A stretch of DNA of 44,763 bases, taken from IMG/VR virus record IMGVR_UViG_3300030310_000017, positions 1 to 44,763 of that record. The stretch is one strand, 5' to 3'. The position numbers and the translations under genes were made by a program. Below, piece after piece: positions 1,637-11,655 of this stretch (within the stretch, counting starts at the first letter, position 1; each line of letters begins with the position of its first letter). The notes beneath the pieces are model-generated. The model saw only the letters and a program-made list of their open reading frames with translations. It was not told where the DNA came from and did no database searches. The stretch comes from a virus (Duplodnaviria; Heunggongvirae; Uroviricota; Caudoviricetes).

Positions 1637-2205
1637 TAGCGTACCCTCAGCGAACGTTCGCCGCGTTCCAGATGTGCGCCTGGTACCGGGTTTAATAACT
1701 CGGCTGGTGGTGTTTCTCCACGCGCCAGTATTTCGGCGGCAACCGCCTCCGCAGATTCAATCACTTCTTTAATGGCTCGCTTGTTTGGTGTAATAACCGT
1801 TTCTACATCAACAAGTGACACGCCTTCATACTCATCCGGGATCTTATCTTTGCTATCGATAATTACCCGGATAGCCCCCTGTGCATCAGTAAATGTGTTT
1901 TTTGCGGTTTTTAGTTTATCCAGGCCAGCAGCTTGCAGGCAGGCGAGCATATGCTTCCGAATTGCTTTTTCCTTGCCTTCAAAGGACGTCTTACGGGTAG
2001 CCAGGCGAGACATTTCTTCAGCGCAGGTACTGGCATTGCCCTGTAAATTACGGCAGATGACCATCATGGCGTCCAGTTTGTCTCCCAGTTCTCCTTCCAT
2101 ACCTTCAAGCGTGTCGGCGATCATCTCTGGCGTCAGTTCGTCGGAGGTTTCTAACAGGTCAATCAGACTGGCATATTCTTTTGCAATAGCGATAGCAGTG
2201 CTCAT
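1636..2205 (-). CDS. Hypothetical early-operon protein, possibly Gp157-like
   Basis: 189-aa acidic ORF directly downstream of, and overlapping (ATGA), the large recombination-like gene. The family label is a recollection, not verified. Confidence 0.4.
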   Translation of the reverse strand: MSTAIAIAKEYASLIDLLETSDELTPEMIADTLEGMEGELGDKLDAMMVICRNLQGNASTCAEEMSRLATRKTSFEGKEKAIRKHMLACLQAAGLDKLKTAKNTFTDAQGAIRVIIDSKDKIPDEYEGVSLVDVETVITPNKRAIKEVIESAEAVAAEILARGETPPAELLNPVPGAHLERGERSLRVR

Positions 2206-4415
2206 GCTGTTTGCTCCTGTGCTGCGGTGAGGGCGGTGAGGCGTTCGGTTTTGATTTCATTCAAACGGCGCAGGCGCGAACCAAGATAAGTTGAATACTC
2301 CTTATCACCTTTGGATTCTGCGGCCTTGCGGTGAACTTCTACTTCCCGCGCAATAAGGCCATAGACTTTATTAACTTCATTGGGGGTTACGGCTGCAGCC
2401 AGTGTTTTGGCAACACCTGAGAGTCGTTCATCCAGTTCTTCACGCAGTCGGGTAGCATCCTCTGCTTTCTCGCTTGCCTTCTTAATACTGTATTCTGTAT
2501 TCAGCTCGGCGGTGTAGGCACTATCGTTATGCATATCCATATAAACATCTGCCGCAAATCCCAGATGAGATAGTGCTTTGACGGTGGCATCAGTAAGAGA
2601 CTTTTTGGAGGCCTCTTTTTCCATTACCAGTGCCCCTTTGTTATTTTTTGATATGTAATCCGTGTGGCCATATGACGGAATAAATCCTTTCACTCCGTTC
2701 CAGATGTACCAGAGATCTATCCGGATGGTGTGTACTGACAGGCAGAACAGGGAACCGTCAGCATCCCTGACAGGTTTTTGTCCAATAATTTTCCCTGTCT
2801 GATCCTGTATAGGTTCAAGTAATGGCACACCGCGATCCACTCGCTCCTCCTTGATTTCAACTCCCCAACCAATGCCTTCCATTCCCAGCACTTCAGTCGC
2901 ACGCATCAAAATATATTGTGCGCGTATGGAGTGCAGTCCTGCACCGTAATCATTATGTGTGACATACGCAGGATCGGTCCGCTGAACGCGATTCCAGATA
3001 GCCAAATTTGCTTTGCTCTGGTCATCATTCATTGCTGACAGATAATGCTCCATGCGAATTGATGCAGTTTTTTCCTCGGCATGGGGCGGCTCAACCAGCG
3101 CGTCAACGTTCTGCACCAGATCCTTTACCTGCTCGCTAAGTTTTTCTTGTGGAGGAGTCTCTTCTGCCGGGGTAATAGCTGCAGGTTCCCTCTGTGAGAC
3201 GGCGTTATTTTCAGGTACGTCATACACATGGCGAGGCGTGATAAACTGCTCACGCAACTGCTGCAAACTACGTTCTCCAGCATTTGCAGCTTCGCTTTTT
3301 TCACCCTGATTTGAGGGTGTTTCTGACATCATCCCATCAATTGAGAATCGCCCGCCGCCGTGGTTGGTGACTTTTACATCATCCTTTGGTGCTGCTTCCT
3401 TTGACTTCTCTTCAACAGCATTTGCATCACGCTGCCCGTTAGCTTGCAGCCAGTTGTCGATGTGACTGCGCAGGGATTGCGGGAAGTGGTACGTGTCTTT
3501 TGCGGGGGCGCTCTGAATAACACCGAATACTGATGCGCGGTCATAGGCAAGGATCTGATCCGTTGTGCGCAAGGCCATTGACCAGCGTTTAAAATCCTCC
3601 CGATCCTGGCTGATTATTTCGTCTGCCGCTTTCAGGGCGCTGGGGGAGATTTTTTCCGGGCCAACGGGTAACAGAGCGCAGGCAATTTCACGATCCAGTG
3701 TAGCGTGAGTCTGTTTGTAAGGACGTGCGGACGGTTTTACCTCCGGCAGCATTTCATCGCGTTTACCGGGATTCTCTACCCATTTTTTTATAAATTTGGA
3801 GATAGTCCAACTGGTCGGGTTTTGTTCCTGGGTATCGCAACTTGCCAAAATTGCATGTACCAGATTATTCAATCCAGCAATATGCATGTACTCGATGGGC
3901 TTACACGCCACCATGGCATCAAGAACGATGCGGTTAAACGCGTCAACCTCATCCTCACTGTCAGTATCACTGTTGTCGAGCATCTCCAGGTATTCACGCG
4001 TCTGCGCAAGCAATTCACTGTCGACTTCGTTGGCGTCGTGGCTGAACAGCAGAACGGCGGCGAATCGTTCACGAGCCGGCAGTTTCATCAGGTCGTTAAC
4101 CTGTGCGATATCTGCTGAACCGCTATCTACAACGGGGGTGTTAACTACCCATTTTTCGCCATCAAAACTGTGTTCTGTGGCGAACGTCTCATCAAACTCA
4201 CCAACGCCTGGGCGCGGTTGGCCCAGGGCATCTTCCCAGATTTTAGGTTTGAAATAGTTGTCGCCGTGGTCAGGGTAGGCTTCCCACAATTTGCCGATGA
4301 TGATGTTCTCGGCAACTTTTTTGTTAGGGGCGTCGATGGCGATGGCCAGCGCCGGGATCGCGCCGTTTTTGAGCGCGCCTTTTTTCGCTTCTAACAAGCC
4401 GTTAAAAATGGTCAT
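2202..4415 (-). CDS. Large early protein with a putative ERF/Rad52-like single-strand-annealing region near the C-terminus
   Basis: 737-aa ORF in the early leftward operon. The C-terminal segment (KALSHLGFAADVYMDMHND) loosely resembles the conserved core of phage ERF-type annealing proteins; the N-terminal ~450 aa are unassigned. The CDS is solid, the function tentative. Confidence 0.5.
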   Translation of the reverse strand: MTIFNGLLEAKKGALKNGAIPALAIAIDAPNKKVAENIIIGKLWEAYPDHGDNYFKPKIWEDALGQPRPGVGEFDETFATEHSFDGEKWVVNTPVVDSGSADIAQVNDLMKLPARERFAAVLLFSHDANEVDSELLAQTREYLEMLDNSDTDSEDEVDAFNRIVLDAMVACKPIEYMHIAGLNNLVHAILASCDTQEQNPTSWTISKFIKKWVENPGKRDEMLPEVKPSARPYKQTHATLDREIACALLPVGPEKISPSALKAADEIISQDREDFKRWSMALRTTDQILAYDRASVFGVIQSAPAKDTYHFPQSLRSHIDNWLQANGQRDANAVEEKSKEAAPKDDVKVTNHGGGRFSIDGMMSETPSNQGEKSEAANAGERSLQQLREQFITPRHVYDVPENNAVSQREPAAITPAEETPPQEKLSEQVKDLVQNVDALVEPPHAEEKTASIRMEHYLSAMNDDQSKANLAIWNRVQRTDPAYVTHNDYGAGLHSIRAQYILMRATEVLGMEGIGWGVEIKEERVDRGVPLLEPIQDQTGKIIGQKPVRDADGSLFCLSVHTIRIDLWYIWNGVKGFIPSYGHTDYISKNNKGALVMEKEASKKSLTDATVKALSHLGFAADVYMDMHNDSAYTAELNTEYSIKKASEKAEDATRLREELDERLSGVAKTLAAAVTPNEVNKVYGLIAREVEVHRKAAESKGDKEYSTYLGSRLRRLNEIKTERLTALTAAQEQTA

Positions 4416-4445
4416 TGGTCTTTCCTCATTACAGGTCAGTGGTCT

Positions 4446-4766
4446 TTAGTAGGGGATTTCATCAGTATCTGGCGTGTATTCGATGCAAAGTAACTGCTGG
4501 ATTTTGTCATCGATAGCAGCAATACGCTGTTGGGCGTCGGCGGCTGTATTCTGTTTTTGCTCACGCAGCTGCTCAACCTGTAAACCGATGATGTCGATTG
4601 GCTGGGGCTGGTTGACGGTAATTTCAATTTCGCGGCTTTCCAGAAGGATGTACCTGTCTGGAAAATTTTTTGACATATCAACTGTCGCAATAAACAGCTT
4701 TTCATGGCTGAAAGTTGAAGTTGCATAATGAATAAAGAGTGTTACTGGGATGGTGCGCGCTTCCAT
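4446..4766 (-). CDS. Hypothetical early protein
   Basis: 106-aa ORF, first gene of the leftward early operon after the ORF-poor leader. Confidence 0.45.
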   Translation of the reverse strand: MEARTIPVTLFIHYATSTFSHEKLFIATVDMSKNFPDRYILLESREIEITVNQPQPIDIIGLQVEQLREQKQNTAADAQQRIAAIDDKIQQLLCIEYTPDTDEIPY

Positions 4767-5194
4767 AGCGACTCCTTGGTGATGTATACTCAGAACCGAT
4801 CAGCGAATATTGATCAGCTTCCATAGCGTCAGTGTCGTTGGTCTTTCCTCATCACAAGTTTGGTCACTTGTGATAAATCCGAATGGTTTGGTCGCCGTTC
4901 GGGGTAACTGGCCCGCCTTGTGCGGGTCTTTTGCTATCTAAAGGGTGCCGGTTACGTTTCCGGCGTCGTCATGTTTCCATCACGACCGTACAGGGCTGGT
5001 CTTTCCTGTTTTGAGCTGGTCAGGCTCATGGTCAACGCTGGTCAGGCGTGGTACTTCCTCCGGTCTTTCCCTGGTTTCACGCTGCGGGTTTGGCCTCTCC
5101 TGTTGGGGACTCAGGCACAGCGATAAAACCTGGCTGTGTGAAAAAATGGCCCATCGTGCGGACTGGGCAAAGACTAAACACAGCAAATTGATGA

Positions 5195-5217
5195 TGGGCG
5201 CCCGGAATCGAACCGGG
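5195..5217 (-). other. tRNA-like T-arm fragment (GGTTCGATTCCGGG followed by CGCCCA); not an intact tRNA
   Basis: The minus strand reads CCCGGTTCGATTCCGGGCGCCCA, a canonical T-stem/loop followed by an acceptor-like 3' tail. No matching 5' acceptor strand or D-arm could be found upstream. Confidence 0.25.
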
Positions 5218-5620
5218 TAACGGGCAGGGAGTTCCCGTTAAACACCTGTTCACCACAACCGGGAGCGCACTCCGCCATTTCAAAATTTAACGACAAAGCT
5301 CAAAGTTGAGTCGATGAAGTGCGCTCTCGTGTTGTAGCCAGGACTCTTCCCTGGTGGTCACACCGTATCGCCTTGATGGTGAATCAATCGCTCATACCTG
5401 GCTGTGGCTTGCACATTCCGGCTACCTGCTATGGAGACAACGCGTTAAGGCTCCGCTTCCATCCAGACCGCTTCGACACATGTGCCATATGCCGGTGAAG
5501 TCTTTCCCTCTGTCACCGTGTTGGCGCCGACGCGCAAAATTTGGTGCCGTCTTTCCGGCTGTCAGAACTTGTTTCTGAACAACTGCCGCTGGGTAAGCGT
5601 TGTTGATGAAAGTGACTTTA

Positions 5621-5670
5621 CAATTTGTATTTGTAATGGTCAATGTGTTTTTAAAAAATAATTTGTAGTG
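5621..5670. promoter_or_regulatory. Putative left operator region with ATTTGTA(A/G)T repeats
   Basis: Three copies of ATTTGTA(A/T/G)T within 50 bp (5623-5629, 5629-5637 and 5661-5669), just downstream of the repressor gene 3' end. The same motif recurs at the divergent promoter region on the other side of the repressor gene. Confidence 0.35.
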
Positions 5671-5761
5671 AGGGACAAAAAAATATTCACTGTGTAAAGG
5701 TGTTTTTGTGTTAGGGGAAAGTTGCATGCCAGCAGCGGCTGGCCTGGAAATTTGAACTGAA

Positions 5762-6190
5762 CTATTTTGTCTGGTTTTTGGCTTCAAGTAGTTCTTTTAG
5801 CAGTAGATCGAAGTGCTCTCTTTTTTCTTTTAGCTCATTGATTAGTTTGTTTTTTTCGCTCTCAGGCAGTCCTCTGAATAGTTGCAGTAGAGCCTGTTCT
5901 TGCGGGGTTAGTTCTTGATTGTAATTACCGGGGTGTAGCGTGGATTCATCCAAATATTCTCCTTCATTCATGAAGAAAAAATGAACAGGGTATCCGGTCA
6001 CTTTTGCTAGCTTGTCTAATTTATCTTTTCTTGGAGTTACCCCATTACACCATGCCTGAACTGATTGAGCTGTAACCCCAATATGGCGAGCTAACTCAGA
6101 TTGAGACCAGCCTAAGTCTTTTAGAATCCGTTGTAGTCGGCTAGCAAAAGCCATGTTTTTCGTTTTTGTGTTCATACCGTAAGGATACAA
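5762..6190 (-). CDS. Phage repressor, XRE-family helix-turn-helix, short form without a peptidase domain
   Basis: 142-aa ORF with a recognisable HTH (SQSELARHIGVTAQSVQAWCNG) and only a short helical C-terminus. It is divergent from a Cro-like gene. No S24 Ser/Lys peptidase region is visible. Confidence 0.8.
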   Translation of the reverse strand: MYPYGMNTKTKNMAFASRLQRILKDLGWSQSELARHIGVTAQSVQAWCNGVTPRKDKLDKLAKVTGYPVHFFFMNEGEYLDESTLHPGNYNQELTPQEQALLQLFRGLPESEKNKLINELKEKREHFDLLLKELLEAKNQTK

Positions 6191-6214
6191 GGTTTAATTG
6201 TAGGGAGCATTGCA

Positions 6215-6250
6215 AATATAATTTGTAATTACAGTTATGATTTGTAATGA
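6215..6250. promoter_or_regulatory. Putative right operator / divergent promoter region
   Basis: ATTTGTAAT occurs at 6221-6229 and TTTGTAAT at 6241-6248, between the divergent repressor and Cro-like genes in an AT-rich spacer. Confidence 0.4.
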
Positions 6251-6273
6251 TGGCGCGGACACAAGGAGTCCAT

Positions 6274-6504
6274 ATGGATAAACAACTGCAAGACAAAATT
6301 CTTTCCGTAATGAGTCAATCCGAGTTAGGTCGGCGATTAGGGAAAAAACCACAAACTGTGAGCCTCTGGTTCAAAGGACGGGTTCCCGGTGAAGAGGTTT
6401 TGCGCACATCTGAAGCTCTTGAATGGCGCGTGACCCCTCATGATCTTAGACCGGATCTTTACCCAAACCCAGATGACAGCTTGCCTAAAACGGAAGCAGC
6501 TTAA
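6274..6504 (+). CDS. Cro/YdaS-like HTH regulator
   Basis: An AAGGAG ribosome-binding site lies 6 nt upstream of the ATG at 6274 (the ORF track starts at 6247). The protein has an HTH and an RHDLRPDLYP motif typical of YdaS-type Cro proteins. Confidence 0.7.
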   Translation: MDKQLQDKILSVMSQSELGRRLGKKPQTVSLWFKGRVPGEEVLRTSEALEWRVTPHDLRPDLYPNPDDSLPKTEAA

Positions 6505-7039: not shown

Positions 7040-7078
7040 GCGCCTGACCAGCGTTTAACTTATACCGAGGAAAGACCG

Positions 7079-11383: not shown

Positions 11384-11472
11384 ATTGACTTAGAAAAAGC
11401 CCGGGGCTATAGTTTCCGCGCAGCCGCAAAATCGGTTGCCGGGATTGGCGTCCCGGATATCTAAGTGACGCA

Positions 11473-11497
11473 TAGCCGCGTTAGCGGTTTTTTTATG
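11473..11497 (+). terminator. Putative intrinsic terminator
   Basis: Short GC stem (CCGC GTTA GCGG) followed by a run of seven T. Confidence 0.4.
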
Positions 11498-11655
11498 TGT
11501 TAGGCACGGCCACATTCGCATTATGGTGGGCTGTGTGGGGGCTTCTGCGGAAGCGCCGGGTTCACTTAGCCGGTTACGCCAACCCTGCACAGTTCACCAC
11601 CAGATGATTGGCGTCGCTGGTGGTGATGAAAAAAACACTAAGTGAGGCCACTGCG

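Follow-up and report, generated by a model that had tools for sequence, protein, structure and literature searches.

What lies in the kilobase between the repressor gene and the first early gene of a lambdoid-type Escherichia coli prophage when no gene can be found there? The question is raised by the IMG/VR record IMGVR_UViG_3300030310_000017, which we analyzed over its whole length of 44,763 nucleotides (nt), here called the window, and in which positions 4767-5762 contain no credible gene. An earlier note, made from the letters of the same DNA, described this kilobase as a leader of the leftward early operon, poor in open reading frames (ORFs), with a repeated motif and a tRNA-like fragment, and proposed that it serves RNA-based regulation. 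We find that much of this description stands but that it overlooked the chief element of the region, which lies at 5335-5496 on the minus strand and which we call X. The comparisons reported here show that X belongs to a widespread family of structured RNAs that we have not found described, and that it stands beside a prophage small RNA (sRNA) family sharing the seed in the 3' part of RprA. We lean toward the view that the kilobase is a cassette of RNA genes, not an empty leader.

The structured RNA X and its occurrence

The scarcity of ORFs in the kilobase is confirmed by annotation and by the ORFs themselves. In a prophage that is 98.6% identical over 4400-5800 and adjoins tRNA-Ser in E. coli chromosomes, RefSeq shows no features between the gene for the 106-amino-acid (aa) protein, the first early gene, and the repressor gene, and the ORFs that a program listed for 4767-5762 are all short and overlap one another. 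The region is present at an identity of at least 90% in 475 of 5426 complete E. coli genomes. A distant BLASTN comparison of 4400-5800 with phage genomes showed that unrelated phages match only 5323-5494, mostly in DNA that is unannotated, and an alignment of six matched phages consisted of long invariant blocks between variable stretches with insertions and deletions. The exact 19-mer GGTAGCCGGAATGTGCAAG occurs in at least 120 IMG/VR contigs, and 81 distinct X core sequences were taken from the listed contigs that bear it.

The structure of X was read from the alignment of these 81 copies and then scored by pair counts. X comprises about 160 nt (about 240 nt together with the hairpin P6 that follows it) and folds into five helices and a pseudoknot; its covariance model, R1, has 170 positions and gives 128.6 bits. 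Among the 81 copies, 97.5% of the pair cells are paired, against 30-49% in controls in which the partner was slid along the sequence, 11 pairs have changed on both sides, and the compensatory cells number 219, compared to 73 ± 7 in shuffles. One pseudoknot pair is CG in 61 copies and AU in 20, with no broken cell, and the G-U wobbles fit only the minus strand, which is the strand transcribed from PL, the leftward early promoter. Variable loops coexist with compensatory changes in the stems and with the near-invariant 19-mer, and X has persisted in phages that differ in morphotype and across about ten genera; judged by these patterns, X is a real RNA structure that has been selected and has not decayed.

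No conserved reading frame was found in X: no frame is open in more than 38% of the 81 copies, and the copy lengths fall into all classes modulo 3. A conserved protein-coding gene, which would have spoken against an RNA leader, was thus found neither by this frame analysis nor in the RefSeq annotation. The frame analysis rules out X as a protein-coding sequence despite a 59-aa ORF at 5319-5498 on the plus strand and despite antisense coding sequences (CDSs) annotated in mEp460 and phiV10. These two hypothetical CDSs, mEp460_037 (locus L129, 3444-3812) and PhiV10p04 (locus L130, 3248-3499), run antisense to X and to a tRNA-Arg(UCU) gene and are probably annotation artifacts, and several annotated "hypothetical proteins" that lie over X or the adjacent tRNA are probably spurious.

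When the copy in the window and that in phiV10 were compared with Rfam 15, neither gave a match for X at the gathering score, applied to the whole window, or at E values up to 10, applied to four sub-regions, and a search of open-access full text, to which the literature search was limited, for the 19-mer, other conserved strings, and related subjects (P1 ban RNA, prophage mimics of RprA, and put-like elements) returned nothing that describes X. Since the 19-mer had been the first search key, a second search was keyed on the P1/J1-2 block of X in one genome per species. It gave 56 matches, of which 23 were accepted by R1, while the other 33 agree with the number expected by chance. Of the accepted copies, 22 have the exact 19-mer, and 22 are in Enterobacterales, namely, in Escherichia, Citrobacter, Klebsiella, Enterobacter, Kosakonia, Phytobacter, Kluyvera, Pseudescherichia, Pseudocitrobacter, Superficieibacter, and Erwinia dacicola; the sole copy outside this order is on a 1.7-kb contig of a metagenome-assembled genome of Bacillota and is probably contamination. 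At least 669 of the 5426 complete E. coli genomes match an X-containing query, including ST131 EC958, and 196 of the places matched are on plasmids.

The family is spread through temperate phages of Enterobacterales, including P1 and P7, lambdoid phages, epsilon15-like phages, and others. In phage P1 (NC_005856, locus L128), X lies at 71022-71194, unannotated in the reference record, 14 nt after trnI (tRNA-Ile2) and about 95 nt before ban. It is inside the C1-controlled ban operon, which is rich in RNA and also has a dicF-like region and two more tRNAs; the order in this operon (68651-72659) is C1 operator/promoter, dicF-like region, trnA, trnT, tciABC, trnI, X, and ban. P7 and the further P1-like phages D6, SJ46, and RCS47 carry X in this setting as well. 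In the lambdoid phages mEp460, cdtI, Stx2c phages, and Stx2a_WGPS2, X follows directly after the repressor gene. In the epsilon15-like podoviruses (phiV10, SPN1S, Tyrion, TL-2011b, and the E2348/69 prophage), X heads a short stand-alone cassette of X, P6, tRNA, and terminator that is antiparallel to the flanking portal and terminase genes. X is also found in prophages of enteropathogenic E. coli (EPEC). One otherwise syntenic prophage, that of E. coli strain 44 (locus L188), keeps the leader, P6, the RprA-like module, the terminator, and the GGAAAGACC repeats, with an unrelated sequence of about 160 nt, 'Y' (2170-2330), in place of the X core; the modules of the leader are therefore exchangeable. 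'Y' itself has no match in Rfam or in the phage collection.

X sits at the center of regulation in temperate phages that serve as models or matter clinically, among them P1, P7, the phages that convert with Stx2c or CdtI, and the prophages of ST131 and EPEC. Since a block of 19 nt in this pseudoknotted RNA of 160 nt hardly varies between genera, X is likely to bind a conserved partner, and this partner, once found, could reveal a new form of phage control of early transcription or of host manipulation.

The leader around X

Since the repressor gene has operator-like repeats on either side of it and the sole sigma-70-like promoter candidate on the minus strand is at 5643-5615, we take the kilobase to be the 5' leader, not translated, of the leftward early (PL) transcript that the repressor controls, in agreement with the earlier note. 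The repeats, of the ATTTGTAAT type, cluster only at 5623-5669 and at 6209-6248, the latter between the repressor and cro genes. The left cluster overlaps the promoter candidate (-35 element TTGACC at 5643-5638, a 17-nt spacer, and -10 element TAAAGT at 5620-5615), which suggests that 5615-5669 acts as the left operator and promoter (OL/PL) and that transcripts would start near 5607. X begins 119 nt past the -10 element. Its setting in relatives is similar: a strong promoter is often found about 40-60 nt ahead of X, in lambdoid relatives the distance from a repressor-controlled promoter down to X is 30-120 nt, and the commonest gene upstream of it encodes a CI-type repressor with helix-turn-helix (HTH) and S24 domains (of 89 distinct upstream neighbor ORFs, an S24 peptidase domain is encoded by 34 and an HTH_3 domain by 33).

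Between the promoter candidate and X are two small hairpins with GAAAGA loops, GCCG-GAAAGA-CGGC at 5546-5559 and GAGG-GAAAGA-CUUC at 5497-5510, equivalents of which are also present in L188 and in the relative BUCT708, which is 72% identical. GGA motifs occur in or at the loops of these two hairpins, at 5060-5074, in the P5 loop (5338-5354), and in the 19-mer (5408-5426). Such GGA-loop hairpins (CCGG-GAAAGA-CCGG type, GGAAGAG, and CCGGAAUGU) recall CsrA binding sites and CsrB repeats, a likeness that we mention as an idea only; neither it nor a resemblance to N/nut or RfaH-ops elements, judged by eye alone, is claimed here. The expectation of a long structured leader holds: the predicted RNA of 473 nt folds moderately better than shuffled sequences as a whole (z = -2.1), and the fold of X is supported by covariation.

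On its downstream side, X is followed by P6 and then by the relic of a tRNA gene. Of 119 distinct downstream flanks, 101 have a hairpin of at least 12 bp at the P6 position. In phiV10, SPN1S, L007, and L022, tRNA-Arg(UCU) starts exactly at the end of the 3' strand of P6 (the start right behind P6 was scored in L003, L007, L022, and L130, the last being the phiV10 locus), and E2348/69 has what PGAP calls a 'pseudogenic tRNA-Gly' in the position equivalent to the relic. Because relatives have an intact tRNA-Arg(UCU) or a pseudo-tRNA at the equivalent place, the T-arm-like fragment that had been seen on the minus strand at 5195-5217, and that we delimit as a hairpin at 5201-5217, is the remnant of a co-transcribed tRNA gene. 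The motif GGTTCRANTCC is unique in the window, although at least one match occurs in 13 of 100 shuffles, so that it is insignificant alone. ARAGORN, which had been suggested as a check, called no tRNA or tmRNA genes. The Rfam scan, suggested likewise, gave no family for X and no match to the tRNA model (tRNA-Sec reached 19 bits, E = 1), but it did return a partial match to RprA. The further idea that the fragment is a relic of an attachment or recombination site is rejected, since the prophage integrates next to tRNA-Ser beside the integrase gene, about 4 kb away.

The RprA family of Rfam (RF00034) aligns to 5139-5249 with 37.4 bits (E = 0.018; the gathering score is 70). The score comes almost wholly from the 3' half, and the 5' half falls on the tRNA-like relic with poor matches. 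Over the 3' part of K-12 rprA, the module agrees at 40 of 48 positions; this part comprises the terminator and, ahead of it, the single-stranded stretch UUGCUGUGUxUAGUCUUUGCCC. The alignment shows no similarity to the 5' stem-loops with the rpoS-pairing region. The phage module thus differs from RprA in having no 5' stem-loops for pairing with rpoS or hdeD, in being prophage-borne and derived from a long leader, and in having a terminator that varies between phage variants. In L188, the module scores 48.3 bits (E = 4.6e-5). Among 22 phage variants, GCUGUGUGUAGUCUU is nearly invariant while the hairpin that follows it is one of at least six unrelated terminators, a pattern expected of an sRNA seed, and the conservation indicates that the seed is under selection. 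It is found downstream of X in 22 of 100 distinct X loci. The suggestion of an sRNA in the leader is thus supported by a module that combines a candidate RprA-like seed with a terminator.

RprA feeds into the control of rpoS, biofilm formation, and conjugation, and the RprA-like family is a candidate for a means by which prophages tap the Hfq network of the host. The seed string was found in the open-access literature only in papers that list the RprA sequence. RNase E is known to trim RprA itself to a 3' form of reduced length, and RprA activates rpoS and ricI (PMC6202311). As a separate observation, the 3' end of the seed, GUCUUU (5170-5175), is complementary to the AAAGAC core of the GGAAAGAC repeats, but only over 6 bp, and this is probably a coincidence.

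Readings of the role of X

The order of the unit is promoter, X and P6, tRNA or relic, seed and terminator, and early genes. We tentatively prefer a reading, to which we give slightly less than even weight, in which X is a stable RNA that is released by processing and acts in trans on a conserved host component. Transcription from about 5607 would yield X first, closed by P6, then the decayed tRNA, and then the RprA-like seed RNA, and most PL transcripts would end at the 5141-5168 terminator to give a primary RNA of about 470 nt. Processing of the tRNA type (RNase P/E) would split this RNA into a stable X-P6 RNA and an sRNA of the Hfq type that would act on host mRNAs as an RprA mimic, while polymerases that read through the terminator would express the early genes, so that the terminator would double as an attenuator. 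Action in trans would explain the near-invariant unpaired blocks of X, and it is favored because X is found in the stand-alone cassettes of the epsilon15-like phages, because tRNA genes abut X on either side, because a protective hairpin closes the RNA at its end, and because X can be exchanged for another element.

Several observations weigh against this preference. The minimum free energy (MFE) of X alone is no better than that of shuffles (z = -0.64), so that the support for its fold is comparative only, and the RprA-like module is below the Rfam gathering score and has no 5' half that could pair with rpoS. The relic resembles no particular tRNA to a significant degree; homology to the tRNA-Arg of the relatives was considered and rejected, because the overall similarity is not above that of shuffles. 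The transcript start, processing sites, terminator efficiency, and stability of the RNA are all predictions from the DNA. Of 109 loci that could be scored, 90 have X in the same orientation as the first gene of some size downstream, the lambdoid contexts, with a terminator between X and the early genes and no N-like gene, suit a role in cis at least equally well, and the copy in phage P1, with no P6, no terminator, and ban about 95 nt away, looks more like an element of a 5' untranslated region.

These same points give weight to a rival reading in which X is a cis-acting, protein-independent element of processive antitermination or of action against Rho, like the put RNAs of HK022 in function though not in structure. 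X would fold on the nascent PL transcript and modify RNA polymerase, which would then run past the RprA-like terminator and an untranslated stretch of some 850 nt into the early genes of a phage without an N gene. Although on balance unlikely, this rival is serious because X is promoter-proximal, lies upstream of a terminator in phages that lack N, and has the co-orientation just described. The near-invariant unpaired blocks would suit the binding of a conserved host enzyme such as RNA polymerase. A strict scan, which overlooks the terminator of the window itself, places an intrinsic terminator within 350 nt downstream of X in no fewer than 24 of 100 distinct loci, and in relatives the terminator is about 130-340 nt after P5. 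The promoter scan showed no promoter-like site on the minus strand from the 5141-5168 terminator to the first early gene. The annotation of the leftward operon lists no N-like gene, though no profile search for N was made, and the first ORF (106 aa) is not arginine-rich.

The comparison with put, which the earlier note had proposed, bears on this rival. HK022 putL and putR, which suppress termination in cis through binding to the zinc-binding domain of the beta' subunit of RNA polymerase, resemble X in being cis-encoded RNAs, just after PL in the case of putL, in a lambdoid phage without an N-type antiterminator, and in lying upstream of terminators. The put RNA is about 70 nt long with two stem-loops (PMC9378689), in a V-shaped arrangement, and comes as a PL/PR pair, in contrast to the roughly 160 nt, five helices, and pseudoknot of X, which the covariance model search found only once in the 44.8-kb window and not in the rightward operon after PR. 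Over the whole HK022 genome, the best match of R1 was 5.5 bits (E = 3.4), within a tail gene, and, unlike put, X also occurs in phage P1 and in podoviruses outside early-operon leaders. X is therefore not put-like in size, architecture, or sequence. An antiterminator is also hard to reconcile with the short cassettes of the epsilon15-like phages, which have their own terminator, with phage P1, where no terminator follows X, and with L188, which has an unrelated sequence for the X core and yet retains P6, the sRNA, and the terminator. In addition, the terminator scan found no minus-strand terminator between the repressor stop codon and 5163, so that read-through from the repressor's own promoter is possible and would also be antiterminated in lysogens. 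The stronger proposal is that X represents a second class of RNA antiterminator or anti-Rho element, working without a protein and structurally unrelated to the first, or a variant of this that senses a factor, and that it licenses early-operon transcription in N-less lambdoid prophages and in P1. We regard this as unlikely; if true, a large share of enterobacterial temperate phages would run the transcription that leads from lysogeny to lysis by an unnoticed device in the nascent RNA.

It seems improbable that X is a ligand- or factor-sensing riboregulator, akin to a riboswitch aptamer, in which helix P1 and a long-range pairing alternate to set whether PL transcription continues into the early genes. 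The architecture of several helices with a pseudoknot and near-invariant junction nucleotides would fit such a sensor, and RNAalifold proposed an alternative 14-bp pairing of the P1 region with the 19-mer that excludes P1 and is 98-100% compatible in the 81 copies. However, the alternative helices are invariant, with no compensatory changes, whereas P1 itself covaries. No expression platform is adjacent, as the terminator is some 130-340 nt away with tRNA or other modules between, and the genes that follow X (ban, recombination genes, and small ORFs) are unrelated to one another. We give even less credence to the notion that the region is mostly decayed, with remnants of small genes and a tRNA at a mosaic recombination joint and an X block that has spread recently by horizontal transfer. 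The tRNA is indeed degenerate, the ribosome-binding-site copy at 4840 lacks the ATG that BUCT708 has, and modules have been swapped between relatives. The conservation described above for X, and that of the seed, which is kept while terminators are replaced, instead point to purifying selection and already contradict decay for both elements. The general expectation of RNA-based regulation is thus upheld by an untranslated leader that appears to carry functions at the RNA level, and it is in the specifics, the put-like RNA and the attachment relic, that our results differ.

Returning to X as a processed, trans-acting RNA, one of the closest known arrangements is the P1 ban operon, which is likewise repressor-controlled, opens with genes for RNAs that are not translated (tRNAs and an sRNA-like element), and carries X. 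It differs in that its sRNA-like element resembles DicF and not RprA, X lacks P6 and a terminator, and tciABC is interspersed. The stable species 1 and 2 RNAs of phage T4 (rnaC and rnaD) and sRNAs from tRNA 3' trailers, such as 3'ETS-leuZ, are structured or regulatory RNAs that are transcribed and processed together with tRNAs, lie against tRNA genes, and have their ends set by tRNA maturation enzymes; to our knowledge, species 1 and 2 still have no known function. Unlike these RNAs, to which no relation in sequence or structure is expected, X persists where the tRNA has decayed or is absent. The C4/CI antisense RNAs of P1, P7, and P4 (RF01695) are also phage regulatory RNAs, cut from longer transcripts by RNase P, but X has no match to the C4 model and no complementary target pair like a1/b1 was found for it. 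A C4 antisense RNA is present elsewhere in the window, at 11519-11604, and matches above the gathering scores of Rfam for c4-a1b1, isrK, and C4 antisense RNA cover 11407-11604 on the plus strand, which is the immI (antirepressor control) region of the P1/P7/P22 type of the same prophage.

Feature coordinates and the distal leader

Table 1. Features of the window around the leader, with strand and the basis or detail of each assignment
Feature	Position	Strand	Basis or detail
Integrase gene	1-1029	minus	
Gp157-family gene			leftward arm
737-aa gene	2202-4415		leftward arm
106-aa gene (first early gene)	4446-4766		leftward arm
Distal leader	4767-5140	minus	GGAAAGACC repeats at 5062-5070, 4998-5006, 4840-4848
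Putative relic upstream ORF, 40 aa	4702-4824	minus	overlaps start of first early gene
Perfect palindrome	4852-4873	minus	UCACAAG-N8-CUUGUGA (7 bp)
GC hairpin	4910-4928	minus	A-rich stretch ahead
Distal-leader hairpin	4947-4964	minus	
RprA-like module	5141-5186	minus	Rfam, alignment to K-12 rprA, terminator scan
Predicted intrinsic terminator	5141-5168 (stem called 5149-5163)	minus	terminator scan; hairpin and U-run
Candidate seed UUGCUGUGUUUAGUCUU	5170-5186	minus	
Degenerate tRNA-like relic	5192-5254	minus	position; T-arm-like hairpin
T-arm-like hairpin	5201-5217	minus	CCCGG-UUCGAUU-CCGGG (5-bp stem, UUCRANY loop)
P6 long hairpin	5255-5335	minus	MFE fold; ACAACACGAGAGCGCACUUC ... GGAGUGCGCUCCCGGUUGU, directly 3' of X core
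X RNA core (conserved structured RNA)	5335-5496	minus	alignment, pair counts, covariance model
X P5 hairpin	5338-5354	minus	GGAAGAG loop
X P4 hairpin	5373-5387	minus	loop CACC pairs with downstream GGUG (pseudoknot)
X P3 helix		minus	
X near-invariant 19-mer GGUAGCCGGAAUGUGCAAG	5408-5426	minus	
X P2 helix		minus	closes domain with variable insert
X P1 hairpin	5474-5494	minus	
Proximal leader, two small GAAAGA-loop hairpins	5497-5559	minus	read from sequence
Putative OL/PL	5615-5669	minus	promoter scan, repeat clustering; three operator-like ATTTGTAAT-type repeats over sigma-70-like promoter
HTH repressor gene	5762-6190	minus	faces cro-like gene
cro-like gene	6247-6504	plus	

The repeated motif that had first drawn attention to the leader is over-represented. 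GGTCTTTCC has four copies on the plus strand, as had been claimed, though at slightly different positions (4417, 4840, 4998, and 5062, against the 4416, 4843, 4983, and 5063 given before, the third being displaced by 15 nt), and two more on the minus strand at 7069 and 9787. These 6 copies compare to 0.31 expected, and none of 100 shuffles reaches 6. The shorter GTCTTTCC adds sites at 5500 and 5549. The reverse complement GGAAAGACC stands 1-3 nt ahead of start codons at 4415, 7079, and 9797, and the motif is therefore in part a real ribosome-binding-site motif. The likeness to a ribosome-binding site suggested before is thus correct for some copies, and the motif is not the core of the structured RNA.

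In BUCT708, the distal leader is kept at about 72% identity, and the motif copy at 4840 stands there ahead of an ATG, for which the window has ACG, and of a CDS annotated with 37 aa. The 40-aa ORF at 4702-4824 starts in the context GCUAUGGAAGC, a duplicate of the one at the start of the first early gene, and the perfect 7-bp palindrome lies just upstream; this ORF may be either a relic or an upstream ORF with a coupling role. At 4910-4945 on the minus strand, a hairpin CCCGC-ACAAG-GCGGG with CACCCUUUAGAU...AAAAG upstream is kept in BUCT708 and L188. The hairpin scores as a terminator on the plus strand, and the arrangement is, by eye, vaguely like a boxA/boxB nut site, with no counterpart after cro.

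The BUCT708 genome (OM816834, locus L002) is deposited as 'Stenotrophomonas phage vB_SmeS_BUCT708' and is about 72% identical over the leader. Its synteny with the E. coli prophage extends from the integrase gene as far as the replication genes. All genomic matches to X are in Enterobacterales, and the host label of this phage looks doubtful.

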